A stretch of DNA of 64,000 bases from Oscillospiraceae bacterium (lineage in GTDB: Bacteria; Bacillota; Clostridia; Oscillospirales; Oscillospiraceae), in the NCBI GenBank assembly GCA_034926415.1, contig JAYFRC010000034.1, positions 4,232-68,231 of the forward strand. Direction: 5' to 3'. Below, one piece after another: positions 2,638-21,885 of the stretch (position 1 is the stretch's first letter; each line of letters opens with the position of its first letter). The position numbers and the translations under genes are program-made. The notes beneath the pieces are model-generated. The model saw nothing but the letters and a program-made list of their open reading frames with translations, was not told the origin of the DNA and did not search any database.

Positions 2638-2653
2638 TATATGCGAACATTGT

Positions 2654-2956: not shown

Positions 2957-2972
2957 ACTCCCTACTTACTGA

Positions 2973-3380: not shown

Positions 3381-3400
3381 CTCCATGCCTCCAATTCCAG

Positions 3401-3478
3401 ATTTGCGAATCATACGCAAATTATGCTATCACTCAGTCTGTTCTTTGTCAATCAAAATTGCGAACTGATTGCAAATTT
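3401..3478. promoter_or_regulatory. Candidate Fur/Zur operators in the zur / ferredoxin divergent spacer
   Basis: Inverted repeat ATTTGCG-N7-CGCAAAT at 3401-3421, about 20 bp upstream of the zur start. AAAATTGCGAACTGATTGCAAATTT lies at 3454-3478. The core TTGCGAA/TTGCAAA recurs four times in 78 bp. Confidence 0.35.
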
Positions 3479-4431: not shown

Positions 4432-4784
4432 TAATCGCAATTCCCGTTGATGAGGGAAAGGAAGCCGTATGCGTTTCCTTTGGACGCGCGCCGTATTTCC
4501 TGATTCACAATACCGAAAACGGCGAGACAAACGCAGTAGAAAACCCGGCGGCCGAGGCGCAGGGCGGCGCGGGCATTCAGGCCGCACAGTTTGTTGTGGA
4601 TACCGGCGCGGACGCGCTGATAACGGTTCGCTGCGGGCAGAACTCCGCGGATGTATTCAAAGCGGCGAATCTCAAAATTTACAGGGCGCAGGGCGAAAGC
4701 GCCTCCAAAAACCTCAAATCGCTTGCGGAGGGAAAACTTGAGGAGCTGAACAGCTTCCATGCGGGTTTTCACGGCAAGGCATGA
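4428..4784 (+). CDS. NifX/NifB-C-terminal-like (dinitrogenase FeMo-cofactor-binding fold) protein
   Basis: MIIAIPVDEGKEAVCVSFGRAPYFLI..AQFVVDTGADALIT pattern of the NifX-like family. AGGAGGAGG RBS. ATGA overlap with the DUF134 stop. Confidence 0.75.
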   Translation: MIIAIPVDEGKEAVCVSFGRAPYFLIHNTENGETNAVENPAAEAQGGAGIQAAQFVVDTGADALITVRCGQNSADVFKAANLKIYRAQGESASKNLKSLAEGKLEELNSFHAGFHGKA

Positions 4785-6486: not shown

Positions 6487-6584
6487 AAATCGCATGGCGC
6501 AGTATCAATCTCTGAAAACAAAAATGAAGCAGCTGCATCATCCGCCCTGCGGGCGGATGCCGGCGCTTTGAGGAGGAACACAAC

Positions 6585-7406: not shown

Positions 7407-7425
7407 TTAAAAGGAGAAATTTATT

Positions 7426-7788
7426 ATGAAAATTGCGGTTGCCTGCAACGGCGAACAGATTTTTGGCCATTTTGGCCACTGCGAGAATTTTATGCTTTTT
7501 GACGTGGAAAATGGCAAGATTACCGGCGCGAAGAGCGTCCCCAATCCCGGCCACAAGCCCGGCTTCCTGCCGAACTTTCTGGCTGATCAGGGCGCCGGGG
7601 TCATCATCGCCGGAGGCATGGGCGGCGGCGCCGTGGATATTTTCAACGAACGCGGCGTGGAAGTGGTCACCGGAGCGGAGGGCGACGCCCGCCAGGCGGC
7701 GGAAGCCTACCTGCGCGGCGAGCTGAAGTCCACGGGTTCCGTCTGTCACGATCACGCGTTTGAAAGCGAGTGCGGCAGCCATAAATAA
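7426..7788 (+). CDS. NifX/NifB-C-terminal-like protein (second copy)
   Basis: MKIAVACNGEQIFGHFGHCENFMLFDVENGKI..GVIIAGGMGGGA, the typical family signature. Confidence 0.75.
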   Translation: MKIAVACNGEQIFGHFGHCENFMLFDVENGKITGAKSVPNPGHKPGFLPNFLADQGAGVIIAGGMGGGAVDIFNERGVEVVTGAEGDARQAAEAYLRGELKSTGSVCHDHAFESECGSHK

Positions 7789-7861
7789 CAGCGGGCGCAT
7801 TTATACCGATTCAGCTCGTCCGCTTTTTATCGGCTCAAGTTAGGGCGCATACGCATAAACG

Positions 7862-7899
7862 AAAAACCTCCGCGCGTTTTTAACGCACGGAGGTTTTTT
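7862..7899. terminator. Bidirectional intrinsic terminator
   Basis: AAAAA-CCTCCGCGCG-loop-CGCACGGAGG-TTTTTT between convergent genes (the + gene ends at 7788, the - gene ends at 7926). Confidence 0.7.
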
Positions 7900-7925
7900 C
7901 CGTATATGTACCGGGGCTACAGGGC

Positions 7926-9353
7926 TTATTCGCCGAGAACCTCAACGTCGATATTCATCATCTTGCAGATGGTCTTTAGCTCGTCTATATGGTCGCCGTA
8001 TACCGCGTGGGCGTGGTTGGCGTCGAAATTGTCGAGGAATACCTTATAGTCGAAGTGAAGCTTCGCGAAATTGTGCGGCCACTCCTTGTTCGTCAGGGCT
8101 TCGCGCTCCTTTGGAAGCGAGACAAGCTCCGCCGTGAACATGACCATGCGGTATCTGCGCCTGCCGTCTTCGTCCATGGAGCGGCAGAGACGCGCGATGG
8201 TGCAGAGGCCGGGCGCGGTCTGGCAGTTTACATGGCAGCCGCCGCCCGCGTATATGTCGAGGCAGGGATAGAGCGTGACGTTTTTCATGTTCTCGTCCGG
8301 GTCGTCGCTGTGCGCGGCGTACCATGTTGACTCGGAGCCGCAGTTGCAGAACTCGAGCACCTGATTCTCCTCGTCCCAGTGGCGGACGTCCATGAACACG
8401 ACGGGCTCGTGCGTCAGCAGCTTTAAAATCTGCATCGTCATGGCGGCATCGGAATCGGCCTCGCAGGCGTAGACCACGGGCTCCTTCTTTCCGTCCCAGT
8501 CGTAGGGATCGTTCATGAAGGCCGCCGCGATGCACTCCGTGCAGTAATGGCAGCTCATGTCATAATGGCACTTGACGCCGACAAAATCAAAGCCGTTCTC
8601 TTCCTGTATGCGCTTTATCGCCTCGTAATGGCGTATCTGTGTCTTTAGCTTCTCCGGCGTGAGCTTCACGCCGTCGTACTCGATGGACTTGCACTTTTCG
8701 GTCAGCCAATCGAAAGCCTTGTCGACCTGAGCCTGCGGAACCTCCGCGGCAAGGCGGACTATCTCGCTTTCGTCGCAGTGCTCGACGTCGACGCCGAATT
8801 TCTCCTGCCAGTCCTGCATATCGACCGTTGCGCTGTACATTCCGAGCGAGCGGCCGCCGATAAGACCGTATTTCTCGCCGTTGAGCGAGTGGACCACATA
8901 GGCGCATTTTGCAAATGTTATGATGCGCGCGAGGACTTCGGACGAATTGAAGTCGCCGTAGGCGCGGAAGTGGCGCACGCCCTGCTGGTTAAGCGCGCCG
9001 CCCGCGGCGAGCATGGCGACCATGCCAGGCCAGTCCGGGTTGAGCTGGGCTGCGAGAAGATATGGCCCCTGGCCGTATTTCGCCGCGACTGCGGAAAAAT
9101 TAGGCCACGCGAAAACGCCGTAGGAGAATATCGTGCCGTCGACGCCTTTCGCCTTCAGTTTTTCGGCCTCCTCTTTCGCGGATTTGACCGAGGTAACGAG
9201 ATTGTCGGCCGTGATCACGTCAACGCGGCCGTCTTTTTCAAGAGCCGCTTTTATAACGTCGAGCTGATGCTGAACTACGTCCTTGCTTTTTTCATGTACG
9301 ATGGGGTCTCCGTCGGACAGCCCCATAAGGCCGAGAAGAGGTTTTCTGAGCAT
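7926..9353 (-). CDS. L-fucose/L-arabinose isomerase-family protein (FucI-like aldose-ketose isomerase), substrate unknown
   Basis: 475-aa ORF with overall resemblance to FucI-like proteins. Last gene of the dhaK-dhaL-rpiB operon. Confidence 0.65.
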   Translation of the reverse strand: MLRKPLLGLMGLSDGDPIVHEKSKDVVQHQLDVIKAALEKDGRVDVITADNLVTSVKSAKEEAEKLKAKGVDGTIFSYGVFAWPNFSAVAAKYGQGPYLLAAQLNPDWPGMVAMLAAGGALNQQGVRHFRAYGDFNSSEVLARIITFAKCAYVVHSLNGEKYGLIGGRSLGMYSATVDMQDWQEKFGVDVEHCDESEIVRLAAEVPQAQVDKAFDWLTEKCKSIEYDGVKLTPEKLKTQIRHYEAIKRIQEENGFDFVGVKCHYDMSCHYCTECIAAAFMNDPYDWDGKKEPVVYACEADSDAAMTMQILKLLTHEPVVFMDVRHWDEENQVLEFCNCGSESTWYAAHSDDPDENMKNVTLYPCLDIYAGGGCHVNCQTAPGLCTIARLCRSMDEDGRRRYRMVMFTAELVSLPKEREALTNKEWPHNFAKLHFDYKVFLDNFDANHAHAVYGDHIDELKTICKMMNIDVEVLGE

Positions 9354-9435
9354 AACAACATCCCCTTTTTCGAAATTATTATTTATATGTATTTCCGGGA
9401 GCCCGGACGGATATTATCGGCCGAGCCAGAATTTA

Positions 9436-9873
9436 TCAGCGATTTAAGTCATATTCTTTATAACGGTCCACCTTGGGCTGGGACGGGCATCCGGCAGTGA
9501 AATCACTGCCAAGCCAAGTCTTTATAAGTTCCGCCGCCAGCTTCTCACCGATGGTGAACGCGCCGATGCAGGCGATGTTGCTGTCGTTGCTCTTCATCGC
9601 GCGCTCAGCTGAATAAACATCCGATATGAGCGCCGCGTAAGCTCCGCGAACCTTGTTCGCGGCGATGCTCATTCCTACGCCGGTGCCGCAGAGGAGTATG
9701 CCTCTGTCGTATTTTCCGGCAGCGACAGCTTCCGCCACCGCGATGGCGGTATTGGCGTATATTGGATCGTCGCTTCCCATGTCGGTTATCTCATGCCCCT
9801 GAGCCTTGCAGACCTCGATAATTGATTTTTTGAGCGCGGTCGCATTCGGATCGCAGCCTATTGCGAGCTTCAT
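9436..9873 (-). CDS. rpiB: RpiB/LacA/LacB-family sugar-phosphate isomerase
   Basis: 145 aa. MKLAIGCDPNA..LLCGTGVGMSIAANKV signature. Confidence 0.85.
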   Translation of the reverse strand: MKLAIGCDPNATALKKSIIEVCKAQGHEITDMGSDDPIYANTAIAVAEAVAAGKYDRGILLCGTGVGMSIAANKVRGAYAALISDVYSAERAMKSNDSNIACIGAFTIGEKLAAELIKTWLGSDFTAGCPSQPKVDRYKEYDLNR

Positions 9874-9926
9874 GTTTATGTCATTTCCTTTCTTTGTCTA
9901 TATCCGGATTTTCCAGTATATCAAAA

Positions 9927-10583
9927 TCACAGCAGCGGCGCTATACCGTCCGCCATGGCCTGAAGTATAAGGCAGCATGAGCAGGAGCCGGCGTCAAGCA
10001 CGCCTCTCGACCGCTCTCCAAGGCGGCTCGAGCGGCCGTATTTCGCGACCATGTCGTTAGTGCTGTCCCTGCCCTTTTCAGCCGCATCCTTCATATGCGC
10101 GAGCGCTTCCGCGAAAGACGTTCCGGCCTCAGCATCCTTTTGCAGCGACGACGACGCCGGAGCGAGCGTATCGACAAGCGTCTTGTCGCCGGGGCGCGCG
10201 TCTACTATGCCGTAAAGCTCCTCAAGCCCCGCCGAAAGCGCCTTGCTGAACGCGGCGAGGTCTATCTCATCGCTTCCGCTCTCGTCGAGCGAATCGGCGA
10301 TACCCATCATTATAGTACCGTAGATCGGGCCCATGGAGCCGCCTATCTCGTTGAGCAGTATCATCGCAAGGTTGTTCAGGCCTTCGGTGAAGGAAAAATC
10401 CTCAGCGCCGTGGCGGGTCTCAAACATGGTGAAACCCTTGTTCATGTTCGCGCCGTGGTCGCCGTCACCGATGAGACCGTCAACGTCGCCGAGATAAGTC
10501 TTGTTGTCCTGTATGCTCTTTACCATCGCAAGCAGGATTGGCTTTCCAGCTTTATTGGAAAAATATCCCTTCATATCGCTCAC
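9927..10583 (-). CDS. dhaL: Dihydroxyacetone-kinase family, nucleotide-binding subunit DhaL
   Basis: GDGDHGANMNKGF motif, all-helical 218-aa protein, directly downstream of dhaK. Confidence 0.85.
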   Translation of the reverse strand: MSDMKGYFSNKAGKPILLAMVKSIQDNKTYLGDVDGLIGDGDHGANMNKGFTMFETRHGAEDFSFTEGLNNLAMILLNEIGGSMGPIYGTIMMGIADSLDESGSDEIDLAAFSKALSAGLEELYGIVDARPGDKTLVDTLAPASSSLQKDAEAGTSFAEALAHMKDAAEKGRDSTNDMVAKYGRSSRLGERSRGVLDAGSCSCCLILQAMADGIAPLL

Positions 10584-10586
10584 CCC

Positions 10587-11582
10587 TCAGTCCTGCTTGA
10601 AGCCCATGCTGTAAGCGGGCATATCAACGAGCTTTTTAAGTTCATCGTCGAGTTTCATTACTGTCAGCGTCACGCCCATCATTTCAAGCGACGTGAAGTA
10701 GTTGCCTACATAGGCTTTGTGAATGCGTATCCCGGCAGCGGAAATTATTTTCTCTATCTCATTATAAAGCACATACTGCTCCATCACCGGCGTTGCACCG
10801 AGACCGGAAACCAGCACCACGACCTCGTCTCCGGCCGCGAACGGATAATCCGGAAGAACTATGTCGGTCATACGCTTCGCTATGCCGGCCGCGCTCTCAA
10901 GCGGGCAGACTTCGACTCCGGGTTCGCCGTGATGCCCGATTCCTACCTCCATTGTTCCTTCCTGTATCTCAAAGTTCGGATGGCCGACGGCCGGAAGCGT
11001 GCACGGCGTCAGCCCGATTCCGACGCTGCGCGTAGAATCTATGGCTTTCTGAGCCGCCCGTATGACCTCGTCGAGCGGCGCTCCCGTCGAAGCCATGGCC
11101 CCGCCGCACTTCCACATCAGCACCTCGCCCGCGACGCCGCGGCGCTTTCCGCTCTGATCCTTCGGCGCGGACGCGACGTCGTCGTTTGCGACGACGGTTT
11201 TTACCGTCACGCCCTGCTTCGCGGCCATTTTGACCGCCATCTTTACGTTCATATTGTCGCCCGAGTAATTTCCATACAGGCACGCGACGCCGTTTCCGCT
11301 GTCGGCGGCCTTGAACGCGTCCGCAAAGGCCATCGCTGTTGGCGAAGAGAATATCTCGCCGACTGTGACGGCGTCGCAGAGATTCTTTCCGCAGTAGCCG
11401 ACAAACGCGGGCTTATGCCCGGACCCGCCTCCCGTAACTATTCCCACGCGGTTTTTCGTCGGGAACACGGACTTTACAACTCTCGGGTTGGAAGTCTTTT
11501 CCACCATATCAGGGTGAGCTTTCAAAAAGCCCTCAAGCATCTCATCCACGATATTGTCCGGATCATTCATTATCCTCTGCAC
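10587..11582 (-). CDS. dhaK: Dihydroxyacetone-kinase family, substrate-binding subunit DhaK
   Basis: GGGSGHKP and GIGHHGEPG motifs. Probable GTG start at 11582 (GAAAGGA 8 nt upstream). The ORF track extends to a TTG at 11621. Confidence 0.85.
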   Translation of the reverse strand: MQRIMNDPDNIVDEMLEGFLKAHPDMVEKTSNPRVVKSVFPTKNRVGIVTGGGSGHKPAFVGYCGKNLCDAVTVGEIFSSPTAMAFADAFKAADSGNGVACLYGNYSGDNMNVKMAVKMAAKQGVTVKTVVANDDVASAPKDQSGKRRGVAGEVLMWKCGGAMASTGAPLDEVIRAAQKAIDSTRSVGIGLTPCTLPAVGHPNFEIQEGTMEVGIGHHGEPGVEVCPLESAAGIAKRMTDIVLPDYPFAAGDEVVVLVSGLGATPVMEQYVLYNEIEKIISAAGIRIHKAYVGNYFTSLEMMGVTLTVMKLDDELKKLVDMPAYSMGFKQD

Positions 11583-12107
11583 AACAATCTTCCTTTCATA
11601 TCTAAGCGTTTTTCGCTGCAAACGCGATACATTATTTAATTATAACTCTATATTACGGCCGCGGCACTGGGCGCCCTCAGCCTCCGAAATTTGGAAATAT
11701 GCACAAAAGTCACAAATATATTTAATAATGCCAGAGTTCAATTGTCAAGGATTAAATATAAGCGCCGTAATAAATCAGCAACCCCGCAAAAGCGCAGTCC
11801 GGCACAATTTATTTTAGGCCACGCACGGCGCAGCATTTAAATCCGTCATTTCAAACAATTGGCAAAATTTGATGGGAAATGGTCAAAAAGCAGGGCTATA
11901 TCGCCTCGTTTCCGTCACATTGAAGGCAATATAAAAGTGCGTCGCAGCGCCGTTTGAAGCCTTTTTTCCATGTCTATTTTGTCTTGACAGCAATATTCAA
12001 ACGTGCTACTCTTAGTCTAAAAGTTAAAAAAAGCGTCGCAATTAACCGTTTTTTGTTGAAATTACACAAAAATAACCGTACCTTTTGTAAAAGTTCAATG
12101 TTGCGCC

Positions 12108-12122
12108 TTGTAAAAGTTTCCA
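12108..12122 (+). promoter_or_regulatory. cre-like / repeated operator-like motif in the ABC-operon leader
   Basis: TTGTAAAAGTT occurs twice (12085-12095 and 12108-12118). TGTAAAAGTTTCCA (12109-12122) matches 12 of 14 positions of the CcpA cre consensus TGWAANCGNTNWCA as I recall it. Confidence 0.25.
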
Positions 12123-12175
12123 GCTGAGGCGCGGCCCACGGAAGAACGTTTTCCAGGTTTCCTTTTCTGTACAAT

Positions 12176-12196
12176 ACAGCGCTTCGCGCTGTTTTG
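12176..12196 (+). promoter_or_regulatory. Terminator-like leader hairpin immediately upstream of the SBP gene RBS
   Basis: ACAGCGC-TTC-GCGCTGT followed by TTTTGT, 14 nt before GGAGG. Confidence 0.35.
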
Positions 12197-12225
12197 TAAT
12201 AATTAAATTTGGAGGATGAGATCGA

Positions 12226-13353
12226 ATGAAGAAAATGAAGAAGTTTTTGGCATTTGCATGCGCCCTTGCAATGGTTCTCTCCCTGGCGGCCTGCGGCTCG
12301 AAGACCTCGGGCACCACTACCACTACCCCCACAGATTCCAGCAGCGACGTGAAGACGGGCTTTACCTTTGCTCTGCTCGTTCCCACTATGAACCACACCT
12401 ATTTTGAGAACGCAGTCACGTTTGCTCAGAGCGTCTGCGACACCCTCGGCTGCACCCTTACCGTTTACAACGCCGACTCCAGCGCAGATACCATGATAAA
12501 GAACGTCGAAGACGCCGTCAACTCCGGCGCCGACGCTATCATAATCGATCCTTACTATTCTTCGGGCACCAAGTGCGCCGAGGAGTGCAAGACCGCCGGT
12601 ATCCCCATGATAGCATGGGATTCCGACATCGAGGAGTTTGATCCCCAGACTACATATGATTCCTATGTCGGATTCGTCGGCCCTGACGACGAGGATGCCG
12701 GCTACAACATGGCCTGCTATCTTTTCGATCACACCACCGCTTCCGCTGACGGAACCATGTACATCGGCGTCATCCAGGGCACTCCCGGAACCGCTGTCGC
12801 TGCCAACCGTGAAAAGGGCTTCGACAAGGCTTACGACGAGTACACCGCAAAGGGCGTCAAGATAAGCGTTGTCGGCCGTGTCGACGGCGACTTCAACGCC
12901 GAGACCTCTCAGAACGTCACCGAGGACCTCGTTCAGGCTAACCCCAACATCAACGGCATCTGGGCTGCTAACGGCGGCACCGGCACCGGCGTTATGAACG
13001 CTCTTACCAACCTCGGCTACACTCCCGGCAAGGACGTCACCGTCGTTGCAATGGATATGAACCCCGAGAACGTCAAGGCTGTCCAGGACGGCACCCTCGC
13101 TTATGATATCGGCGGACACTGGCTGGTTGCCGGCGACGCTATCATCATGGCGTTCGACTATCTGAACGGCTACCAGCTCACCACTCCCAAGTGGATCATG
13201 AAGCTCCTCCCCATCACTCAGGACAACGTCCAGACCTTCTATGACGATTTCCCGAACAACGTTCCTGTCAACTTTGACATCAAGTCTGCATGCCAGGCTT
13301 ACGGCGGCAGCGCCGACTATGCTTCCTTCGACGTCAACCAGATGCTCGGCTAA
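12226..13353 (+). CDS. Sugar ABC transporter substrate-binding lipoprotein (ribose/CUT2-type)
   Basis: Lipobox LSLAACGS with an S/T-rich linker. Periplasmic-binding-protein type I-like sequence. GGAGG RBS. Confidence 0.8.
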   Translation: MKKMKKFLAFACALAMVLSLAACGSKTSGTTTTTPTDSSSDVKTGFTFALLVPTMNHTYFENAVTFAQSVCDTLGCTLTVYNADSSADTMIKNVEDAVNSGADAIIIDPYYSSGTKCAEECKTAGIPMIAWDSDIEEFDPQTTYDSYVGFVGPDDEDAGYNMACYLFDHTTASADGTMYIGVIQGTPGTAVAANREKGFDKAYDEYTAKGVKISVVGRVDGDFNAETSQNVTEDLVQANPNINGIWAANGGTGTGVMNALTNLGYTPGKDVTVVAMDMNPENVKAVQDGTLAYDIGGHWLVAGDAIIMAFDYLNGYQLTTPKWIMKLLPITQDNVQTFYDDFPNNVPVNFDIKSACQAYGGSADYASFDVNQMLG

Positions 13354-13404
13354 GCGTCCCATCGGCAGATAGTCGCCTTTCGCGACCTATATTTTAATCT
13401 GTAA

Positions 13405-13529
13405 CGAAGGGACCTGTTTAGAATTCAATGTAATTCTTTACAGGTCCCTTCGCAACTAAGGTTCATCGGGCATTACGGAGCTAGCGACATCCGGCACGGA
13501 CAACCGGCTGCGCTGCAGCCGGTTGTCCG
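13405..13529 (+). promoter_or_regulatory. Two strong hairpins in the SBP-ATPase spacer (mRNA stabiliser/attenuator)
   Basis: CGAAGGGACCTGT / ACAGGTCCCTTCG (13405-13452, 13 bp). CGGACAACCGGCTGC / GCAGCCGGTTGTCCG (13497-13529, perfect 15 bp). No clear U-tract follows either. Confidence 0.5.
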
Positions 13530-13598
13530 TATGTCCGATATTTACAGCCTCTGCAATATGTTTTTTCGGAGAATGCGATCTCCCGATTGGAGGAAACC

Positions 13599-15080
13599 AT
13601 GATATTGAGAGCCGAGAACATCTGCAAACGGTTCGGCGCGACCCTTGCGCTTGACAAAGTGACGGCTGAATTCCGCTCCGGCGAGGTCAACGCCCTCGTC
13701 GGCGAGAACGGCGCCGGACAGTCCACGCTGCTCAAGGTCGTCGCGGCCGTTCACCATGCCGACAGCGGCACGATGACGCTGGACGGCAAGCCCTATTCGG
13801 CCGTCAACCCCACCGACGCCGCGCGTCAGGGGGTTGCGATAGTGTTTCAGGAAAGCACAATCAATCCCAGCATCTCGATAGCTGAAAACGTATTTATAGA
13901 CCGTCTTCACCGTTACAGCACGCCGCTTTTCGGAATGAACTGGAAAAAGTTAAAAAAAGACGCGCAGGGCATCCTCGACCAGATGGACGCCGGAATAGAC
14001 GTCAACGGCGACCTGCACAAGCTCGATCTCGGCAAGTGGAAGCTTATAGAGGTCGCGAGAGCTCTGTCCTATAATCCGCAGGTGCTGCTGCTGGACGAAT
14101 CGACGGCGTTCCTCAGCCTGAATGAGTCCAAGGCGTTTATCAAGTCGGTCAAGAATCTCCGCGAAAGCGGACTTGCGCTCGGTTTCGTCTCCCACCATAT
14201 GTCCGAAGTCTTCGAGCTGGCCGATTACATAACAGTCATGCGCGACGGCAAGTTTATCACCGAAATGAAGCGCGAGGACGCGACCGAAGAAAAACTTGAG
14301 GACTGCATGGTCGGTCGTCAGATAGGCGATAAAATGTACCCCGCACGCCGCGCCACTCCCGCAAGCGACGAGATACTCAAGGTCGAAAACATCTCCATTG
14401 AGGGAAAGCTCAAGGACATCAGCTTCACCCTCCACCGCGGCGAGATACTCGGTATCGGCGGGCTCAACGGCTCAGGAGGCGATTCGATACTCGACGCCAT
14501 TTACGGAGCCTGCCCCGTCGAATGCGGAAAGATTACGATGAACGGCGAAACATACCACAAGACCACGCCTGAAAAGAGCATAAAGCGCGGATTGGCGCTG
14601 CTCCCCGGCGAGCGTACGCTTGAGGGGCTGATAGTCAATTTCAGTATCGCAGACAACATCGTGATGTCGGCAGGGCCGAAAAAAGGCCCGCTGCGCGACT
14701 GGAATACCGAGGGCGAGCTCGTCACCAGGTACATCAAGGAAGTCCTGATAAAGACAAATGATCCCAAAAACGCCGCGTCCTCTCTGTCCGGAGGAAATAT
14801 GCAGAAGGTCGTCATAGGCAAGTGCCTGGCTCCCCAGCCGGAAGTCCTGCTTATGAATAACCCGACACGCGGAATAGATATCAGCGCGCGTCAGGAAATA
14901 TATTCGCTGATACGCAAGCTGGCAGACAACGGTCTCGCCATAATAATGCTGACCGAGGATATGCTCGAGCTTCTCGGCATGAGCGACCGCATTATGATAA
15001 CTCGCGATAACAAAATCAGTAAGATCTTCGATGAAAATGTCAATCTGAAAGAAGAAGACCTTATAGGTTACATTGTATAA
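13599..15080 (+). CDS. Sugar ABC transporter ATP-binding protein, duplicated ATPase (RbsA/MglA-type)
   Basis: GENGAGQST Walker A, second-domain LSGGNMQK signature. ATG at 13599 lies 5 nt after GGAGG (the ORF track starts at a TTG at 13587). Confidence 0.9.
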   Translation: MILRAENICKRFGATLALDKVTAEFRSGEVNALVGENGAGQSTLLKVVAAVHHADSGTMTLDGKPYSAVNPTDAARQGVAIVFQESTINPSISIAENVFIDRLHRYSTPLFGMNWKKLKKDAQGILDQMDAGIDVNGDLHKLDLGKWKLIEVARALSYNPQVLLLDESTAFLSLNESKAFIKSVKNLRESGLALGFVSHHMSEVFELADYITVMRDGKFITEMKREDATEEKLEDCMVGRQIGDKMYPARRATPASDEILKVENISIEGKLKDISFTLHRGEILGIGGLNGSGGDSILDAIYGACPVECGKITMNGETYHKTTPEKSIKRGLALLPGERTLEGLIVNFSIADNIVMSAGPKKGPLRDWNTEGELVTRYIKEVLIKTNDPKNAASSLSGGNMQKVVIGKCLAPQPEVLLMNNPTRGIDISARQEIYSLIRKLADNGLAIIMLTEDMLELLGMSDRIMITRDNKISKIFDENVNLKEEDLIGYIV

Positions 15081-15098
15081 GAAGGGAATGAAGCGCAA

Positions 15099-16073
15099 GT
15101 GAGTCCCAGGATTAAATCGGACTGTCCGCAAACAACGGACCATTCCGCCCTGATGCGTAAGCTGTTCGCACCCGCTCTGCTGGTCGCTCTTACCATCGTT
15201 TTTACGCTCTATAACGGCAACTTCCTTACACTGAGGAACCTGCTCACCATCCTTCAGCAGATGGTCGTCACGCTAATCGCCGCATACGGCATGCTTTACG
15301 TCATAGTGGAAGGCGGAATCGACCTCTCCGTCGGCTCGGTCATCGCTCTGTCAGCTATTGCCGTCGCAAACACCGTCGGCACGCTCGGCATCTTCGCCAT
15401 AATCCCGGCCATAATAGTCGGATTGCTATGCGGACTTGTAAACGGCTTGGTCTCCACATACCTAAAGGTCCCCACATTTATCGTCACCATGGCAACGCAG
15501 ACCTCCTTCCGAGGCATAATACTTATTCTGACGGGCGGAGCGCAGATAATGATAACGCGCCAGGACTTCCTGACCGTCTACGGCGGCCGCTCGATAGGAA
15601 ATGTCCCCAACAGCATAATCTTCGGCATCATAGTAACGATAATCATTTGGTACGTTTTCAAGAACTTTGCGTTCTCCCGCGAGGTGCGCGCGGTCGGCGG
15701 CTCCGAAAAGGTCGCTACGCTTGCCGGAATCAAGGTCAACTCCGTCAAGGTCAAGGCCTTTGTTCTTGCCGGCGGACTCGCGGGTCTCGCAGGATGCCTT
15801 CAGGCGGCACGTTCCTACGCCGCCACTCCGACCATGGGCGAAGGTCTTGAGATGGATATCATCGCAGCCGTCGTCCTCGGCGGCACCCCGATGTCCGGCG
15901 GTATCGGTAGCGTCATGACCACCGTGCTCGGCGCACTCATCATCGTCGTCCTTTCAAACGGCATGAATATGATGGGGCTTCCCGCCGACGTCCAGAAGGT
16001 CGCAAAGGGCGTTATGCTTATCGTCGCCGTCTGCGCCACCATCGACAGAAGACGCATCGGAATAATCAAGTAA
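15099..16073 (+). CDS. Sugar ABC transporter permease (RbsC-type)
   Basis: About 10 TM segments with a branched-chain/ribose permease-like sequence. GTG start; the start is uncertain. Confidence 0.85.
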   Translation: MSPRIKSDCPQTTDHSALMRKLFAPALLVALTIVFTLYNGNFLTLRNLLTILQQMVVTLIAAYGMLYVIVEGGIDLSVGSVIALSAIAVANTVGTLGIFAIIPAIIVGLLCGLVNGLVSTYLKVPTFIVTMATQTSFRGIILILTGGAQIMITRQDFLTVYGGRSIGNVPNSIIFGIIVTIIIWYVFKNFAFSREVRAVGGSEKVATLAGIKVNSVKVKAFVLAGGLAGLAGCLQAARSYAATPTMGEGLEMDIIAAVVLGGTPMSGGIGSVMTTVLGALIIVVLSNGMNMMGLPADVQKVAKGVMLIVAVCATIDRRRIGIIK

Positions 16074-16142
16074 TTTTCGCAGGTCCGGCGACGTACGCCG
16101 GAGTCCGAGGGTAAGAATTTTTTATGAAAAGGAGATAAAACT

Positions 16143-16820
16143 ATGAAACGTTCTGAGATAAACCGCAATATCGAGTGGGCTATCGACACATGCAAAAAAC
16201 TTCATTTCAACCTTCCGGCGTTCGCTTTCTGGACGCCCGAGGAATGGAAAAACCGCCGCGCGGAAACGGAACACATGGTCAGCGTCGCCCAGGGCTGGGA
16301 TGTGACCGACTACGCTACCGGAACCTTCGACAAGGTCGGCGCGGTGCTCTTCACTCTGCGCAACGGCAACATATACGACAAGACAAAGGGAACTCCGTTC
16401 TGCGAGAAAATAATCGCGATGAAGGATGGCCAGCTCCTTCCCCTGCACTTCCATTACTCCAAGACCGAGGACATTATTAACCGCTGCGGCGGCATCCTCT
16501 GCGTCACCGTCTACAATTCCAAAAAGGTCGGCGACGATTATGTGATAGACAAGGAGTCGGACGTGCATCTGCGCCTCGACGGCATACCCACCACCATTTC
16601 TGCAGGCGGAACCGTAGAGATAACGAACGGCAACAGCATTACGCTGACCCCTTATATCTATCACAAGTTCTGCGCCAAGGGCGGAGACCTGATAGTCGGC
16701 GAGGTCTCGTCCATCAACGACGACGCCAAGGACAACCATTTCGAGACCGAGCTCAATCTCACCATTGAGGAAGACGAGCCGGTTCGCCACGTTCTCTGCG
16801 GCGGCTACGTCCAGAAATAA
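16143..16820 (+). CDS. D-lyxose/D-mannose-isomerase-like cupin sugar isomerase
   Basis: 225 aa. N-terminus MKRSEINRNIEWAIDTCKK..FWTPEEW and the HFHYSKTEDIINRCGG cupin motif resemble D-lyxose ketol-isomerases. Confidence 0.6.
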   Translation: MKRSEINRNIEWAIDTCKKLHFNLPAFAFWTPEEWKNRRAETEHMVSVAQGWDVTDYATGTFDKVGAVLFTLRNGNIYDKTKGTPFCEKIIAMKDGQLLPLHFHYSKTEDIINRCGGILCVTVYNSKKVGDDYVIDKESDVHLRLDGIPTTISAGGTVEITNGNSITLTPYIYHKFCAKGGDLIVGEVSSINDDAKDNHFETELNLTIEEDEPVRHVLCGGYVQK

Positions 16821-16844
16821 TCCACCGTATATCGGGAGAATGAT

Positions 16845-17486
16845 ATGAATACTCTTAATTGCGTTCAGGTGCGGGAAATGCTGCTTCACACCGCGGCGAA
16901 GATAATCGACAGCAAACCGTATCTCACTGAGGTCGACAGCAAAATAGGCGACGGCGACCACGGTATAGGTATGAGCCGCGGCATGGAAAAGGCAACCGAA
17001 AAGCTCAACTCGCTCACAGAGGCGACCGACGTCTATCAGCTCTTCAGCGAGATGGGAAAGACTCTGCTCATGTCCATGGGCGGAGCGTCAGGCGTCATCT
17101 TCGGTACGATGTTTATGGGCGGAGCAAAGGGCAAGACTCCCACGGCCGAGATAAGCGCCGCTGATTTCACAGCCATGATGAACGACAGCCTCAACGCTAT
17201 AATCGCAAGAGGCGGCGCGCACGTCGGCGACAAGACGATGATAGATGCGCTCTCGCCCGCAGTCGACGCGCTGAAGGCTAACGCTGAAGGCGGCTACGCC
17301 GTCATGCTTCACGAGGCCGAGAAAGCCGCGCGCTCCGGTATGGAAAATACCAAAAATTTCCAGGCGAAATTCGGCAGGGCCAAATCGCTGATGGAGCGCT
17401 CCATAGGCTATCAGGATGCGGGCGCCACCTCGGTATGGCTCATATTTCAGGCCATGAGCGAATATGTCGAGGGGGCGGAGAAGTGA
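16845..17486 (+). CDS. dhaL: DhaL-type nucleotide-binding subunit (second set)
   Basis: GDGDHGIGMSRGM motif, 213 aa. Confidence 0.85.
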   Translation: MNTLNCVQVREMLLHTAAKIIDSKPYLTEVDSKIGDGDHGIGMSRGMEKATEKLNSLTEATDVYQLFSEMGKTLLMSMGGASGVIFGTMFMGGAKGKTPTAEISAADFTAMMNDSLNAIIARGGAHVGDKTMIDALSPAVDALKANAEGGYAVMLHEAEKAARSGMENTKNFQAKFGRAKSLMERSIGYQDAGATSVWLIFQAMSEYVEGAEK

Positions 17487-18475
17487 AGAAGAAAATCATA
17501 AACGACCCTGAAAACTGCGTCAGCGAGACCGCGGAAGGCTTCCTGCTGGCTCATCCGAAGCTGTATGAAAAGGTTCCCGACGTCGCCGGGATAAAGGTGA
17601 AAAATGTCAAGGACAAGACGGCGCTCGTCATCGGAGGCGGCAGCGGACACGAGCCGATGTTCTCCTTTTTCGTGGGCGACAATCTGGCCGACGCCGCCGC
17701 TGCCGGAAACATCTTCGCCTCGCCCGACCCGGGAACCATAATGCAGACAGCCATGTCGGTCGACTCCGGCAAGGGCGTGCTGTTCGTCTACGGAAACTAC
17801 GCGGGAGACAACCTCAACTTCGATATGGCTGCCGAGCTGCTCGGCGACATGGGAGTCGAGAGCAAAACAGTCCGCGTGCGGGACGACATAGCGTCCGCCC
17901 CGAAAGACCGCGCCGATGACAGGAGAGGCATTGCGGGAGATCTGTTCGTAGTCAAGATAGCCGGAGCGGCCACAGCGTCAGGACTCACGCTCGACGAGGC
18001 ATGGCAAGTTACGGCGAAAGCCCGCGACAACACGTTCAGTATTGGCGTTGGCCTCGAGGGCGCAACTATTCCGGGAGAAAGCAAGCCGATATTCACCCTG
18101 CCCGAGGACGAGATAGAATTCGGGCTCGGCATACACGGCGAGCCCGGCGTCCACAGAATGAAGATGATGTCCGCCGACGCTATAGTCGACATGCTCGTCG
18201 AATTGCTGCTCAAGGATTCCGGCATCAAGGCCGGAGACCGCGTATGCACTTACGTCAACGGGCTCGGCTCCACCACGCTGATGGAGCTGCACATAATGAA
18301 CAGGCGGCTCGCTCAGATACTTCGGGAAAAACAGATATCCGTGTACGACATGGAGGTCAATTCCTACGTCACGACGCAGGAGATGGCCGGCGCGTCGATA
18401 ACGCTGTTCAAACTCGACGACGAGCTCCAGAAGTATTACGATATGCCCTGCGACTCCGTGTACTATAAGAAATAA
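17483..18475 (+). CDS. dhaK: DhaK-type substrate-binding subunit (second set)
   Basis: VKKKIINDPEN N-terminus, GGGSGHEP, GLGIHGEPG. GTG start overlapping the dhaL stop (GTGA). Confidence 0.85.
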   Translation: MKKKIINDPENCVSETAEGFLLAHPKLYEKVPDVAGIKVKNVKDKTALVIGGGSGHEPMFSFFVGDNLADAAAAGNIFASPDPGTIMQTAMSVDSGKGVLFVYGNYAGDNLNFDMAAELLGDMGVESKTVRVRDDIASAPKDRADDRRGIAGDLFVVKIAGAATASGLTLDEAWQVTAKARDNTFSIGVGLEGATIPGESKPIFTLPEDEIEFGLGIHGEPGVHRMKMMSADAIVDMLVELLLKDSGIKAGDRVCTYVNGLGSTTLMELHIMNRRLAQILREKQISVYDMEVNSYVTTQEMAGASITLFKLDDELQKYYDMPCDSVYYKK

Positions 18476-18537
18476 AATTTGCCTCTCCCTGTCTTTACGG
18501 CAGGGAGAGCTGCGCATAACCGCGAAAGGAAAGGAGC

Positions 18538-18559
18538 GGATATTGCCGTGGCAATATCC
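18538..18559 (+). promoter_or_regulatory. Perfect 10-bp hairpin inserted between the SD and the start codon of the TIM-like gene
   Basis: GGAAAGGAG (18528-18536), then GGATATTGCC-GT-GGCAATATCC, then 10 nt, then ATG at 18570. Confidence 0.5.
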
Positions 18560-18569
18560 CTGAACGCAT

Positions 18570-19367
18570 ATGGCAAAGCTTGACAAACTGTATCTCGGCA
18601 CCAACACGAAAATGTACAAGGACATAAGCCAGACCGTGGACTTCCTTACCACCCTGCGCGATTACACCGCGGGGATCAGCCGCGATGAGCTCGAACTGTT
18701 CGTAATCCCCTCGTTCACAACGCTCGACCGCGCCCGCATAAGCGTGACGTCGGAAGAGATACATCTCGGCGCGCAGAACATGGGCTGGGAAAGCGAGGGG
18801 CAGTTCAGCGGCGAGGTTTCGCCCCTGATGCTGAAGGAAGTCGGAAGCGAGATAGTGATGATAGGTCACAGTGAGCGCAGGCACGTTCTTGGCGAAACCG
18901 ACGTCATGGAAAACAAGAAAGTGCTCTGTGCGCTGAAATTCGGACTTATTCCGCTGCTCTGCATCGGCGAGACCGGCGACGAGAAGGCGATGGGAATATC
19001 AGACGAGGTGCTCAGGACTCAGCTCAAGATAGGACTGCATGGCGTCGACCTTTCCGCCGGAGGAGAGCTGTGGGTCGCCTATGAACCCGTATGGGCCATC
19101 GGCGTAAACGGCGTGCCCGCGACAAAGGAATACGCCGAAGAGAAGCACTGCGTCATAAGAAACGCTCTCACCGAGATACTCGGGGAGAAATACGGGAACA
19201 GCGTCCCCATATTGTACGGCGGAAGCGTCAACCCCGAGAACGCACCCGGACTCATACAGATGAAAAACATCGACGGCCTGTTTATCGGAAGGAGCGCGTG
19301 GCAGTCTAAGAACTTCAGCGATATCATCAACACCGTCCTCCCGCTCTGGAGAGCTAAATCTGTCTGA
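18570..19367 (+). CDS. Triose-phosphate-isomerase-family protein (paralogue; probably a sugar-phosphate isomerase)
   Basis: Catalytic-type residues are kept (NTKMY Lys, GHSERR His, YEPVWAIG Glu, YGGSV). It deviates from the canonical NWKMN and AIGTG motifs and is embedded in a sugar operon, not a glycolytic one. Confidence 0.75.
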   Translation: MAKLDKLYLGTNTKMYKDISQTVDFLTTLRDYTAGISRDELELFVIPSFTTLDRARISVTSEEIHLGAQNMGWESEGQFSGEVSPLMLKEVGSEIVMIGHSERRHVLGETDVMENKKVLCALKFGLIPLLCIGETGDEKAMGISDEVLRTQLKIGLHGVDLSAGGELWVAYEPVWAIGVNGVPATKEYAEEKHCVIRNALTEILGEKYGNSVPILYGGSVNPENAPGLIQMKNIDGLFIGRSAWQSKNFSDIINTVLPLWRAKSV

Positions 19368-19390
19368 TGTTAAAATGCTGAGCCGCACAA

Positions 19391-19421
19391 CGCGCGTGCC
19401 TTCGGGCGCGCGCGTTTTTTT
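19391..19421 (+). terminator. Intrinsic terminator of the sugar operon
   Basis: CGCGCGTGCC-TTCG-GGCGCGCGCG followed by TTTTTTT. Confidence 0.8.
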
Positions 19422-19740: not shown

Positions 19741-21885
19741 ATGAACACACGCGGCGGGACGCGCGGGAAACAGGAGTTGAGTGTTGTGGAAGATACAAAC
19801 AGAGACAGACAGACCGTGCTTATAGTCGAGGACCTCAAGACGAACCGAAAAATTCTGCATAACATACTCGACAGCGAATATAACGTCGTCGAGGCTGAAA
19901 ACGGCGACGCCGCATTTGTCAGGCTTGACGAATGCGGCGATATCACTGCGATACTGCTCGACATAATCATGCCCGTGATGGACGGATACGCCTTCCTCGA
20001 AAAGCTCAGGAACACGTCCTACTCAGCTATTCCCGTCATCGCCGTGACGGGCGATAATGACGCAGGGACCAAGCAGAAGGCGCTTCAGCTCGGAGCATGG
20101 GATTTCGTGTCCAAGCCCTATAGGGCGGACGCTCTTATGCTGTGCCTTAAAAACGTCATCATACGCAGTCAGGTCTATCTCCTAAGCGAGATGCGCCGAA
20201 CCTACGAGTATGACGCGCTGACCGGACTTTTCAACCGTTCCAAATTTTTTGAAGAAACAAAGCGCCTGCTCGAGCACAACAGCGACCTCAGTTACGCACT
20301 GATGTGTTTTGATATCGACCAGTCCCACCTTCTCAACTCCTTCTGGGGCGAGGAGGAGGTCGACAGGTTTCTTAGCTTTATTGCGGACGCGCTCCGGGAA
20401 GTCGCAAAGAGCGCCGCGCCCTGCACTTTTTCCCGCATAAGTACAGACACGTTCTGCATCTGCGAGCCCTACAACACGGATGCGATAGCGCTTCAGGTGG
20501 CCGAGCTGCGCGCAAAATTTTCCGACTACAACAAAAACTATCTCATAGAGCCGTCTTTCGGCGTCTACGTCATAACCGACAAAAACGAAAAGATACAGAC
20601 TATGTTAGAGCGCGCCACGCTCGCGGCCAAGGAATGCAAGGACAAATTCATGTCGTTTCTGCGCTACTACAATCCCGAGATGAGCCTTAAGGCCGAACAG
20701 GAGCAGATGATAGTAAGCGATATGCATAACGCGCTAGAGACGGGCCAGTTCCAGGTTTACCTCCAGCCGAAATATAATCTCAAGACCGAAAAGCCCTACG
20801 GCGCGGAAGCTCTTATACGCTGGCAGCATCCCGAATTCGGACTGCTATTGCCCGGCATGTTCATTCCGATATTTGAAAGAAACGGTTTTATCGGAAAAAT
20901 CGACTATTACATGTGGGAAAAGATCTGCGCAATGCTCCGCAAATGGCTTGACGAGGGCTTGGAACCCGCGCCGATATCGGTAAACGTATCGCGCGTCAAC
21001 ATGTATAATCCGAACCTCGTAAGCCTCATATCGAATCTCGTAAAAAAATACAACATTCCTCCGAGGCTGCTCAATCTCGAGCTTACCGAGAGCGCGTACA
21101 TGGACAACCCCGACATCATGGGCAAGACCGTACTGGCGCTGCAGAAGGCCGGATTCACGGTGATGATGGATGATTTCGGGAGCGGCTACTCCTCGCTTAA
21201 CACGCTGAAGGATATACCGATAAACGTCCTGAAAATTGATATGCAGTTCCTCTCTGGCAACGCGGAAGCTGGGCGAAAGGAATGCATAATGGCCGCCGTG
21301 GTCCACATGGCCAGCTGGCTCGGGATACCCGTTATCATGGAGGGCGTTGAGACATCCCGGCAGGTCAGCTTTCTCAAGAGCATCGGCTGCGGTTACGTCC
21401 AGGGTTATTATTTTGCAAAGCCCATGCCAGTCCCGGAATACGAGGCGCTGGTCAGCGGAGTGCGGCAGGAACCTGTGGAGTCCCTGTCCGTCAATCACGA
21501 GGAGCTCGTCTATACGATATGGTCGTCCGATCCGCACATCGACCTGTTGTTTAACAGCATCAAGCGTCCCGCGGCGGTGTACCAGTTTGAAAACGGATTT
21601 TTTCGCGCTATACGCGTAAATTCCGATTTCATCAAATTCTTTGGATACGGCGAGGAAATAGTCGACACCAGCATACATGGCCGCCATTCTCATCTTTCTC
21701 CCGCCGCGCGGGCAACCGTCGTCGACGCTTTCATGCGCGCCGTGGAAACGCGGGATGAAAGCGCCTGCGAATACGAGCTGAACGACGATTTGGGAGCGAC
21801 GCGGCGGATATCCCTCTCCCTGCGCTACTGGGGAGCGAATGAAAGCGCCAATATCCTCTTCGCTCTGTTTTTCGAGGCCGACTGA
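19741..21885 (+). CDS. Response-regulator receiver + degenerate GGDEF + EAL phosphodiesterase + C-terminal PAS-like domain
   Basis: REC domain (LIVED..LLDIIMP..SKP). GGDEF-like domain with the signature replaced by RISTDTF. Intact EAL motifs (EALIRW, ELTES, DDFGSGYSSL, KID, EGVET, QGYYFAKP). A GTG at 19786 with AGGAG 9 nt upstream is a likelier start. Confidence 0.85.
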   Translation: MNTRGGTRGKQELSVVEDTNRDRQTVLIVEDLKTNRKILHNILDSEYNVVEAENGDAAFVRLDECGDITAILLDIIMPVMDGYAFLEKLRNTSYSAIPVIAVTGDNDAGTKQKALQLGAWDFVSKPYRADALMLCLKNVIIRSQVYLLSEMRRTYEYDALTGLFNRSKFFEETKRLLEHNSDLSYALMCFDIDQSHLLNSFWGEEEVDRFLSFIADALREVAKSAAPCTFSRISTDTFCICEPYNTDAIALQVAELRAKFSDYNKNYLIEPSFGVYVITDKNEKIQTMLERATLAAKECKDKFMSFLRYYNPEMSLKAEQEQMIVSDMHNALETGQFQVYLQPKYNLKTEKPYGAEALIRWQHPEFGLLLPGMFIPIFERNGFIGKIDYYMWEKICAMLRKWLDEGLEPAPISVNVSRVNMYNPNLVSLISNLVKKYNIPPRLLNLELTESAYMDNPDIMGKTVLALQKAGFTVMMDDFGSGYSSLNTLKDIPINVLKIDMQFLSGNAEAGRKECIMAAVVHMASWLGIPVIMEGVETSRQVSFLKSIGCGYVQGYYFAKPMPVPEYEALVSGVRQEPVESLSVNHEELVYTIWSSDPHIDLLFNSIKRPAAVYQFENGFFRAIRVNSDFIKFFGYGEEIVDTSIHGRHSHLSPAARATVVDAFMRAVETRDESACEYELNDDLGATRRISLSLRYWGANESANILFALFFEAD

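Follow-up and report, generated by a model that had tools for sequence, protein, structure and literature searches.

We analyzed a stretch of 64,000 nucleotides from an Oscillospiraceae bacterium (GenBank assembly GCA_034926415.1, contig JAYFRC010000034.1), referred to here as the 64-kb window, in which two divergently transcribed operons combine four putative sugar isomerases with two kinases of the Dak (DhaK/DhaL) family and a sugar ABC importer. Judging from the sequences and from analogy with known pathways, we consider it somewhat probable that these genes form a self-contained route for the catabolism of free C4 sugars, with two branches converging on D-erythrose-4-phosphate. Genes were called by open reading frame (ORF) listing together with Pfam and NCBIfam scans, and all coordinates are positions within the window. 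An earlier note, made from the sequence alone, had described eleven genes, and all of them were recovered with the coordinates, order and families that it gave. The gene content and operon layout observed were as follows:

7926 to 9353, minus strand: FucI-like protein, a putative aldose-ketose isomerase of the FucI/AraA superfamily, short form, 475 aa, with three Fucose_iso Pfam domains

9436 to 9873, minus strand: RpiB-family sugar-phosphate isomerase, DerI/EryI-like (PF02502)

9927 to 10583, minus strand: DhaL1, nucleotide-binding subunit of the K1-type Dak kinase (Dak2, 165 bits; GDGDHG)

10587 to 11570, minus strand: DhaK1, substrate-binding subunit, K1 clade (Dak1, 369 bits; GGGSGHKP)

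11571 to 12225, no strand: AT-rich divergent promoter/operator region of ca. 655 bp between the two operons

12226 to 13353, plus strand: lipoprotein substrate-binding protein (SBP) of a CUT2-type sugar ABC importer (Peripla_BP_4, 154 bits; LAAC lipobox)

13587 to 15080, plus strand: ABC ATPase with two ABC domains (ABC_tran, twice)

15099 to 16073, plus strand: ABC permease, RbsC-like (BPD_transp_2, 129 bits)

16143 to 16820, plus strand: cupin of the D-lyxose isomerase family (Lyx_isomer, PF07385, 269 bits)

16845 to 17486, plus strand: DhaL2, nucleotide-binding subunit of the K2-type Dak kinase (Dak2, 175 bits)

17483 to 18475, plus strand: DhaK2, substrate-binding subunit, K2 clade (Dak1, 361 bits; GGGSGHEP)

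18570 to 19367, plus strand: TIM-family isomerase, LerI/EryH-like (PF00121, 235 bits)

19389 to 19416, plus strand: strong intrinsic terminator closing the plus-strand operon (9 GC pairs within a 12-bp stem, then a T-run)

The minus-strand operon is transcribed in the order DhaK1, DhaL1, RpiB paralog and FucI-like protein, and the plus-strand operon in the order SBP, ATPase, permease, cupin, DhaL2, DhaK2 and TIM paralog. The ORF of DhaK1 extends to position 11621, and its likely start is the ATG at 11570, which has an AGAGGA ribosome-binding site ahead of it; DhaK2 starts with a GTG at 17483 that overlaps the stop of DhaL2. As the earlier note had remarked, the cluster itself contains no dhaM or other gene of the phosphoenolpyruvate-dependent phosphotransferase system (PTS), aldolase, transketolase or regulator. 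Pfam scans of the other large ORFs of the window detected no PTS component, aldolase or transketolase either, and DhaM was found neither among the window ORFs (Pfam) nor by a tblastn check of the window, nor when the window and every fetched locus were scanned for its N-terminal motif, which is a crude test. Along similar lines, neither a glycerol dehydrogenase nor a glycerol facilitator was present among the window ORFs scanned, and genes that are typical neighbors in relatives (IclR, FGGY, FbaII, short-chain dehydrogenase/reductase, transketolase and dihydrodipicolinate synthase) gave no tblastn match in the 64 kb. Regulators are present elsewhere in the window and none adjoins the cluster, whereas relatives usually carry an IclR gene. 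With neither an aldolase nor a transketolase or FGGY kinase found in the window, the kinases and isomerases must reach a central metabolite unaided.

Relatives of the FucI-like protein are encoded in 392 species-representative genomes. We analyzed 80 FucI-like loci, 64 of them unique, using tblastn with the window proteins and clustering of all neighboring ORFs, together with 80 metagenome loci of the cupin. A K1-type DhaK (see below) was found within 6 kb of the FucI-like gene in 45 of the 64 unique loci, and an RpiB gene was present in 35. The commonest layout, distributed over six phyla, consists of a divergent IclR gene, often SBP, ATPase and permease genes, and then FucI-like, DhaK1, DhaL1 and RpiB; it was seen in Lachnospiraceae, Oscillospiraceae, Christensenellaceae, Spirochaetota, Anaerolineae, Acidobacteriota and Planctomycetota. 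Another recurrent arrangement was (FGGY, ABC, class II aldolase) cupin-DhaK2-DhaL2-TIM-like-RpiB (loci L098 to L105, L109, L114 and L129). A Lawsonibacter metagenome-assembled genome (L015) reproduces the gene order of the window at 73 to 90% identity, and in one locus (L006) all seven enzymes are colinear in a single operon. Since the same enzyme set occurs in many unrelated genomes, and once as a colinear operon, the arrangement is not a chance juxtaposition.

Both kinases of the window have complete Dak1 and Dak2 domains with their active-site His and Asp motifs, namely HGEPG and GGGSGH(K/E)P in the two DhaK subunits, which the earlier note had already pointed out, and GDGDHG in the two DhaL subunits. 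DhaK1 and DhaK2 are 42% identical and DhaL1 and DhaL2 35 to 37%; by these values, the copies are old paralogs with no sign of a recent duplication. Clustering of all locus DhaK sequences at ≥60% identity separated two clades with different partners. The K1 clade (n = 59) carries GGGSGHKP in 60 of 60 sequences, including that of the window, and was accompanied by the FucI-like gene in 54 cases, RpiB in 48, the cupin in 13 and a TIM-like gene in only 2. In the K2 clade (n = 22), where the motif is GGGSGHEP (22/23, including the window), the corresponding numbers were 5 for FucI-like, 16 for RpiB, 17 for the cupin and 14 for TIM-like. By gene context, K1 is thus coupled to DerI-like isomerases and K2 to both LerI-like and DerI-like ones; these two families are described next.

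The TIM paralog belongs to the TIM family and keeps the catalytic Asn/Lys, His and Glu positions, its NTK, GHSERR and YEPVWAIG motifs being aligned with those of the structures 11ef and 1b9b. Overall similarity provided no separation between the canonical enzyme and PDB entry 11ef, deposited as “L-erythrulose-1-phosphate isomerase” (193 bits to the Thermotoga TIM versus 191 bits to 11ef), and what distinguishes the paralog from canonical TIM is confined to its loop motifs and its scores on curated models. In loop 6, a one-residue insertion is found in the paralog (WAIGVNGVP) and in 11ef (WDIGENGIP), compared with WAIGTG-R in the Thermotoga TIM, while the phosphate-gripping loop 8 reads DGLFIGRSAW in both the paralog and 11ef and DGGLVGGASL in the Thermotoga TIM; the canonical forms of the two loops are WAIGTG and DGxLVGGASL. 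Both signatures, IGxNGxP and DGLF(I/V)GR(S/A)AW, were present in 12 of 12 Dak-linked TIM-like genes of relatives. Furthermore, the paralog scored 121.5 on the canonical TIM equivalog TIGR00419, below its cutoff of 130.6. The 11ef chain begins with KFWIGTSWKMNK, which matches MTKFWIG, the translation of the cloning primer of Brucella eryH (PMC5468441), so that 11ef is an EryH-type enzyme.

The RpiB paralog retains the fold (PF02502, 144 bits) and the catalytic Cys (CGTGVG) of its family, but it departs from the canonical sequence at three sites: GCDPNA instead of GSDHGG (DH to DP at positions 9 and 10), KSNDSN instead of HND (His99 to Ser) and absence of the C-terminal RHxxR (canonical GGRHxxR). 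In RpiB enzymes, His99 opens the furanose ring. The same changes are seen in PDB entry 5ifz (AGDSAG, LSNNAQ and no RHxxR), a fragment of which passes NF051858, the equivalog for DerI, which isomerizes D-erythrulose-4-phosphate, with 247.7 against a cutoff of 240. The replacement of His99 by Ser and the loss of the C-terminal Arg/His were found in every module-linked RpiB of relatives, and the one RpiB of canonical type that was sampled (L078) is separated from its module by 6 kb. We also found a 409-aa RpiB-TIM fusion (P0242), whose TIM-like domain is 77% identical to the window paralog; as Rosetta-stone evidence, this fusion argues for RpiB and the TIM-like enzyme acting together.

As for the two enzymes that would act on free sugars, the FucI-like protein matches all three Fucose_iso Pfam domains above their cutoffs but reached only 91 bits (cutoff, 775) and 77 bits (cutoff, 850) with the FucI equivalog models, and with 475 aa, it is ca. 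115 residues shorter than FucI (ca. 590 aa). A Foldseek search with its AlphaFold2 model (predicted local distance difference test score, 82; predicted template modeling score, 0.86) gave template modeling (TM) scores of 0.83 to the D-arabinose isomerase 3a9r, 0.81 to 0.82 to L-fucose isomerases and ca. 0.80 to AraA, a three-domain fold in common (TM, 0.79 to 0.83) at identities to solved superfamily members of 13 to 22%. In the family alignment, the presumed catalytic residues Glu, Asp and His never vary. Sequence and predicted structure place the protein as a third, shorter branch of the FucI/AraA superfamily. The cupin has a full-length match to PF07385 and has the motifs HFHxxKxEDIINR, YHxF and GEVSSxNDD in common with its best solved relative, the E. 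coli D-lyxose isomerase 3kmh (148 bits), yet its score on the D-lyxose/D-mannose isomerase equivalog NF051472 was 192.5, against a cutoff of 350. Among cupin homologs with ≥58% identity, a Dak neighbor was present in 15 of 19 informative loci, compared with 0 of 17 for those below 58%, so the cupin of the window belongs to the only subfamily of its family that adjoins Dak genes. Public annotations of these homologs are generic.

Some FucI-like genes occur in other surroundings. The closest homologs (90 to 91% identical), from Paralachnospira, Lachnotalea, Fusibacillus and other Lachnospiraceae (L011 to L014, L016 to L020 and L022 to L024), stand alone, for the most part next to BioY and a GlgB/MscS/BipA block; the fetched 20-kb loci contained neither a Dak nor an RpiB gene, which suggests recent transfer or a second role of the enzyme. 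In seven other loci (L033, L034, L042, L045, L052, L062 and L085), the gene follows an ABC transporter, a class II FBP-type aldolase, an FGGY kinase and a split transketolase (N and C parts), a context suggesting a further role of the FucI-like isomerase in pathways for longer-chain sugars from which short aldoses are released.

The transporter is a CUT2 importer whose genes all lie in the plus-strand operon: an SBP of the Peripla_BP_4 family, an ATPase with two fused ABC domains and a permease of the BPD_transp_2 family. The ATPase is RbsA/AraG/XylG-like and falls below every equivalog cutoff. The best named relatives of the SBP are YtfQ and RbsB, at only ca. 84 bits; its similarity to characterized binders is weak, with some resemblance to furanose and pentose binders, and sequence comparison yielded no match that would identify its ligand (best solved relatives, ca. 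84 bits). In relatives, SBP orthologs with 40 to 66% identity adjoin the FucI-like/DhaK1/DhaL1/RpiB operons, and the transporter genes of the commonest layout are orthologous to those of the window at 40 to 68% identity.

This weak resemblance, together with the identity of the closest solved structures (D-arabinose/L-fucose isomerase, with TM scores of 0.81 to 0.83, and D-lyxose isomerase 3kmh), would be compatible with catabolism of a rare pentose or hexose, in which the FucI-like protein would be a D-arabinose/L-fucose-type isomerase, the cupin a D-lyxose/D-mannose isomerase, the Dak proteins unusual ketopentose or ketohexose kinases and RpiB and TIM ordinary helpers of pentose-phosphate metabolism and glycolysis. 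A route from D-arabinose through D-ribulose and ribulose-5-phosphate to ribose-5-phosphate would indeed use RpiB, but the paralog present lacks the ring-opening His and the phosphate-binding Arg/His of ribose-5-phosphate isomerases, and the TIM paralog has the EryH/LerI loops. Both free-sugar isomerases are far below their equivalog cutoffs, the cupins that include the ordinary members (<58% identity) were never beside Dak, and ketose-1-phosphates would need an aldolase, which was not found in the window. Besides, no enzyme of the Dak family is known to act as a kinase on C5 or C6 ketoses. We therefore regard this possibility as improbable.

For C4 sugars, the set of genes fits together as follows. 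The SBP and the ABC transporter would import a C4 sugar, either an aldotetrose, erythrulose or both. In the D branch, the FucI-like isomerase would convert an aldotetrose into D-erythrulose; by analogy with the stereochemistry of D-arabinose/L-fucose isomerases, the substrate would most likely be D-threose, or possibly D-erythrose. DhaK1/DhaL1 (DerK-like) would then phosphorylate D-erythrulose at C4, and the RpiB paralog would isomerize D-erythrulose-4-phosphate to D-erythrose-4-phosphate. In the L branch, the cupin would convert an L-aldotetrose (L-erythrose or L-threose) into L-erythrulose, from which DhaK2/DhaL2 (LerK-like, a 1-kinase) would make L-erythrulose-1-phosphate; the TIM paralog would shift the carbonyl to give D-erythrulose-4-phosphate, and the same RpiB paralog would complete the branch. 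The assignment of D-threose to the FucI-like protein and of L-erythrose to the cupin, which we presume from the archetype enzymes and from work on rare sugars, is the weakest part of the model. On the other hand, the model explains why K1 modules need RpiB and not TIM, why K2 modules need both and why a window with two branches needs a single RpiB. Given that the window contains Dak, LerI-type and DerI-type proteins of the expected subfamilies and no dehydrogenase, aldolase or other kinase, the C4 reading is also the parsimonious one. The earlier note had anticipated much of this scheme, and its proposals, namely a TIM and RpiB route to erythrose-4-phosphate, a role of the Dak proteins as erythrulose kinases and two free-sugar entries, gain weight here from the 11ef-type loops, the DerI-type residues, the RpiB-TIM fusion, the two kinase clades with differing partners and the restriction of Dak-linked cupins to their own ≥58% subfamily.

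Several points weigh against the C4 reading. The substrates are assigned by analogy and from gene context. In nature, aldotetroses are rarely found in free form, a poor fit with the wide distribution of the modules, although L-erythrulose and L-threose derived from ascorbate are a plausible candidate source. The TIM paralog reached 283.2 on NF000722, below the cutoff of 293 that the 11ef fragment passes (434.7), and the RpiB paralog only 123.8 on NF051858 (cutoff, 240), a model built for Rhizobiales. Since these curated cutoffs were missed narrowly by TIM and clearly by RpiB, we file both proteins as subfamily relatives and not as curated members; the RpiB paralog, which also fails the rpiB equivalog TIGR01120 (104.8 versus 138.65), leans towards DerI. 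Moreover, because the FucI-like protein and the cupin served as baits when the loci were gathered, adjacency to them is in part built in, whereas the clade-specific pairing with TIM-like genes and the near-universal presence of RpiB are not. Finally, in five loci (L003, L008, L055, L072 and L092), the cupin is accompanied by RpiB and only a K1-type kinase, and by no TIM-like gene, which conflicts with a strict conversion to L-erythrulose by the cupin unless the kinases accept a broader range of substrates or an epimerase takes part. In one of them (L003), there is also a psicose-3-epimerase-like protein (181 bits), which could convert D- and L-erythrulose into each other; the other four call for another explanation.

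Other adverse loci bear on a role with C3 compounds. Ca. 12 of the 45 FucI-like/K1 loci have no adjacent RpiB, a class II aldolase lies directly upstream of the FucI-like gene in several loci, aldo-keto reductases are nearby in some, and in L001, a sugar-acid cluster of the TRAP/dehydratase/HpcH-aldolase kind, which includes an archaeal-type TIM, precedes a Dak pair and a cupin that is 81% identical to that of the window. These contexts, together with the classical action of Dak enzymes on dihydroxyacetone and glyceraldehyde, keep alive, at least as a side activity, triose salvage, in which the isomerases would turn L- or D-glyceraldehyde released by an aldolase into dihydroxyacetone, Dak would produce dihydroxyacetone phosphate, and the TIM paralog would interconvert it with glyceraldehyde-3-phosphate. 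Such a scheme, however, has no role for an RpiB paralog that accompanies both types of module (48/59 and 16/22) and has lost the residues for ribose-5-phosphate, and it leaves unexplained the EryH/LerI loops of the TIM paralog, its failure on the canonical model and the presence of a dedicated SBP-dependent importer in the operon. Neither the ORF scans nor tblastn revealed an aldolase in the window that would make the aldehyde. For these reasons, we consider triose salvage an unlikely primary function.

The RpiB and TIM-like pair was also found next to other entry enzymes. In one locus (L171), its neighbors are a fused Dak, a mutarotase of the RbsD/FucU type and AP_endonuc_2 proteins, and in two others (L172, positions 5462 to 10792, and L173), RpiB and a TIM-like gene (73% identical) are divergent from a RuBisCO-like-protein/lactonase cluster (RuBisCO-like protein, UPF0261, metallo-beta-lactamase-fold protein, GntR and SBP), which may be another, oxidative route ending in erythrulose phosphate. 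The occurrence of the pair beside differing entry enzymes indicates a portable lower module. These last two loci also touch on D-apiose, a common sugar of plant cell walls that has the structure of an aldotetrose bearing a hydroxymethyl branch. Apiose could be converted to apulose, phosphorylated by Dak and then cleaved or rearranged, or the cluster could be the LerI and DerI tail of an apiose pathway, for which the split transketolase genes beside some FucI-like modules and the existence of an NCBIfam model for 3-oxo-isoapionate-4-phosphate decarboxylase could also be invoked. Nevertheless, the RuBisCO-like protein of L172 scored 129 on the OiaX model, far from its cutoff of 700; no RuBisCO-like protein, lactonase, oxidoisomerase or transketolase was found in the window; an RpiB step on apulose-4-phosphate reaches no central metabolite; and the window SBP is distant (ca. 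40 bits) from the SBPs 4ry0 and 5ibq, which are presumed apiose binders. An apiose pathway is thus very improbable.

The remaining point against the C4 reading concerns the kinases. Both DhaK subunits are nearer to the PTS-type subunits 3ct4 and 1oi2 (233 to 242 bits) than to the ATP-dependent Citrobacter enzyme (142 to 150 bits), the nearest solved PTS-type proteins being those of Lactococcus and E. coli, and DhaL passes the TIGR02365 cutoff. Taken at face value, the cluster would be a duplicated PTS-dependent metabolism of dihydroxyacetone or glycerol with isomerase genes adjacent by accident. Yet both DhaK subunits fail to reach the cutoff of the dhaK equivalog (343 and 342 versus 406), the window ORFs scanned had no dhaM, glycerol dehydrogenase or facilitator, and an accident is hard to reconcile with tight, clade-specific isomerase synteny across phyla, so we find this explanation the least credible of those considered. 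In addition, close orthologs of K1/L1 exist as fused single chains. The lack of a detectable DhaM and these fused chains favor ATP, and the PTS-like sequences point the other way; the phosphoryl donor is probably ATP. Altogether, the pentose/hexose, apiose and plain dihydroxyacetone alternatives were ranked low because each of them fails to account for the altered RpiB, for the TIM of EryH type or for the missing aldolase.

In order to put the cluster into perspective, we compared it with the systems that it resembles. Dak-family kinases that phosphorylate erythrulose, as well as LerI, which converts L-erythrulose-1-phosphate to D-erythrulose-4-phosphate, and DerI, which leads to erythrose-4-phosphate, are known from the tetritol pathways of Mycobacterium smegmatis (Huang et al. 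2015; LerK, DerK, LerI and DerI are summarized in PMC10733421). The window resembles these pathways in having putative Dak erythrulose kinases, TIM-family and RpiB-family isomerases, converging D and L branches and a CUT2 ABC importer. It differs in that entry is through two putative aldose-ketose isomerases instead of polyol dehydrogenases, in an anaerobic Clostridia-type host with a cluster devoid of a regulator, and in the two-subunit DhaK/DhaL nature of the kinases, the mycobacterial erythrulose kinases being single chains. The erythritol pathway of Brucella (EryA-B-C, EryH and EryI; Barbier et al. 2014, via PMC5992420 and PMC5468441) likewise ends in two steps by TIM and RpiB paralogs (EryH = TpiA2 and EryI = RpiB; PMC5992420), and the window proteins have in common with the EryH-type 11ef and the DerI-type 5ifz the diagnostic loop and active-site changes. 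However, Brucella first phosphorylates erythritol with an FGGY kinase (EryA) and then oxidizes and racemizes it, without Dak or a free-sugar isomerase.

At the level of single enzymes, the FucI-like protein has the fold (TM, 0.80 to 0.83), the three Pfam domains and the putative catalytic Glu/Asp/His of FucI and AraA, but its genomic partners are Dak and RpiB, in place of an FGGY kinase and a class II aldolase. The cupin has PF07385, the HxH...E...H metal site and GEVS in common with D-lyxose/D-mannose isomerases (E. coli O157 Z5688, 3kmh/3mpb), from which it differs by its equivalog score (192.5 versus 350) and its Dak-adjoining subfamily. Similarly, the kinases resemble DhaKLM in their two-subunit DhaK/DhaL composition, catalytic His/Asp motifs and top similarity among solved structures, but no DhaM was found with them in the searches above, the K1 clade has Lys and not Glu after the active-site His, and their context is one of sugar isomerases rather than glycerol dehydrogenase.

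The lower half of the proposed pathway is thus that of the known tetritol and erythritol pathways, while the proposed dehydrogenase-free entry through isomerases has no described counterpart. Our literature searches found no description of a natural dedicated tetrose isomerase, no link between lyxose-isomerase cupins or FucI-like proteins and erythrulose or Dak kinases, and, for erythrulose and Dak in gut organisms, no description of such a system. Synthetic work on D-erythrose and D-threose borrows a side activity of the Pseudomonas stutzeri L-rhamnose isomerase (PMC12012885; bioRxiv 10.64898/2026.03.04.709640). This would perhaps be, then, with a chance that we put slightly short of even, the first dedicated pathway for free aldotetroses, in which a short protein of the FucI/AraA superfamily and a cupin, tetrose isomerases that are unrelated to each other and complementary in stereochemistry, would supply two Dak erythrulose kinase clades. 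Such a pathway would be widespread among Clostridia of the gut, spirochaetes, Planctomycetota and Acidobacteriota and would plausibly scavenge C4 fragments, such as the L-erythrulose and L-threose that arise when ascorbate breaks down, or D-tetroses released as sugars are degraded. If the C4 reading is right, two large and now misnamed protein families, the ca. 470-aa “L-fucose/L-arabinose isomerase family protein” and a subfamily of “D-lyxose/D-mannose isomerase,” would gain a function, and hundreds of anaerobe genes annotated as “triose-phosphate isomerase” or “ribose-5-phosphate isomerase B” would become erythrulose-phosphate isomerases. The use of C4 sugars would extend to common gut commensals, the carriers including Blautia, Dorea, Clostridium leptum and Christensenellaceae, and the DhaK/DhaL kinase family would acquire a wider substrate range and a partner logic. 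Natural tetrose isomerases and erythrulose kinases would also become available for synthetic glycolaldehyde, formaldehyde and C4 pathways, which now depend on weak L-rhamnose isomerase activity.

Within the divergent region, the sequence TTGTAAAAGTT is present in two exact copies (12085 to 12095 and 12108 to 12118), 23 bp apart, and a hairpin with 13-nt arms at 12170 to 12198, followed by T-rich sequence, lies directly 5' of the ribosome-binding site of the SBP gene. The repeats and the hairpin could act as a candidate operator or attenuator; a search of the 655-bp region for riboswitches or other RNA elements gave no Rfam match at an E value of ≤1.

The flanks of the cluster are unrelated to it, with Fe-S/MrpORP-type genes upstream and genes for a response regulator with GGDEF and EAL domains, a family 2 glycosyltransferase and an iron-containing alcohol dehydrogenase downstream. 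The response regulator-GGDEF-EAL protein (19741 to 21885) comes directly after the cluster terminator, and no link between it and the cluster was seen in relatives. Upstream, positions 4781 to 7788 encode two CbiA/4Fe-4S P-loop proteins and then an MrpORP-like Fe-S carrier that is split into two ORFs (6585 to 7406 and 7426 to 7788, covering model positions 3 to 235 and 265 to 365), and a Zn/Mn-type ABC importer (ABC-3 permease, ATPase and ZnuA-like SBP) with a Fur-family regulator occupies positions 17 to 3419. Farther downstream, a minus-strand cluster at 39537 to 49970 contains genes for a beta-keto-acid cleavage enzyme (BKACE), thiolase, an SSF symporter, CoA-transferase A/B, TctC and TctA, with a divergent LysR regulator, and by its gene families appears to be an uncharacterized acyl or keto-acid catabolic unit. 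The GC content is 0.445 at positions 48001 to 50000, compared with ca. 0.55 to 0.59 in the adjoining sequence.

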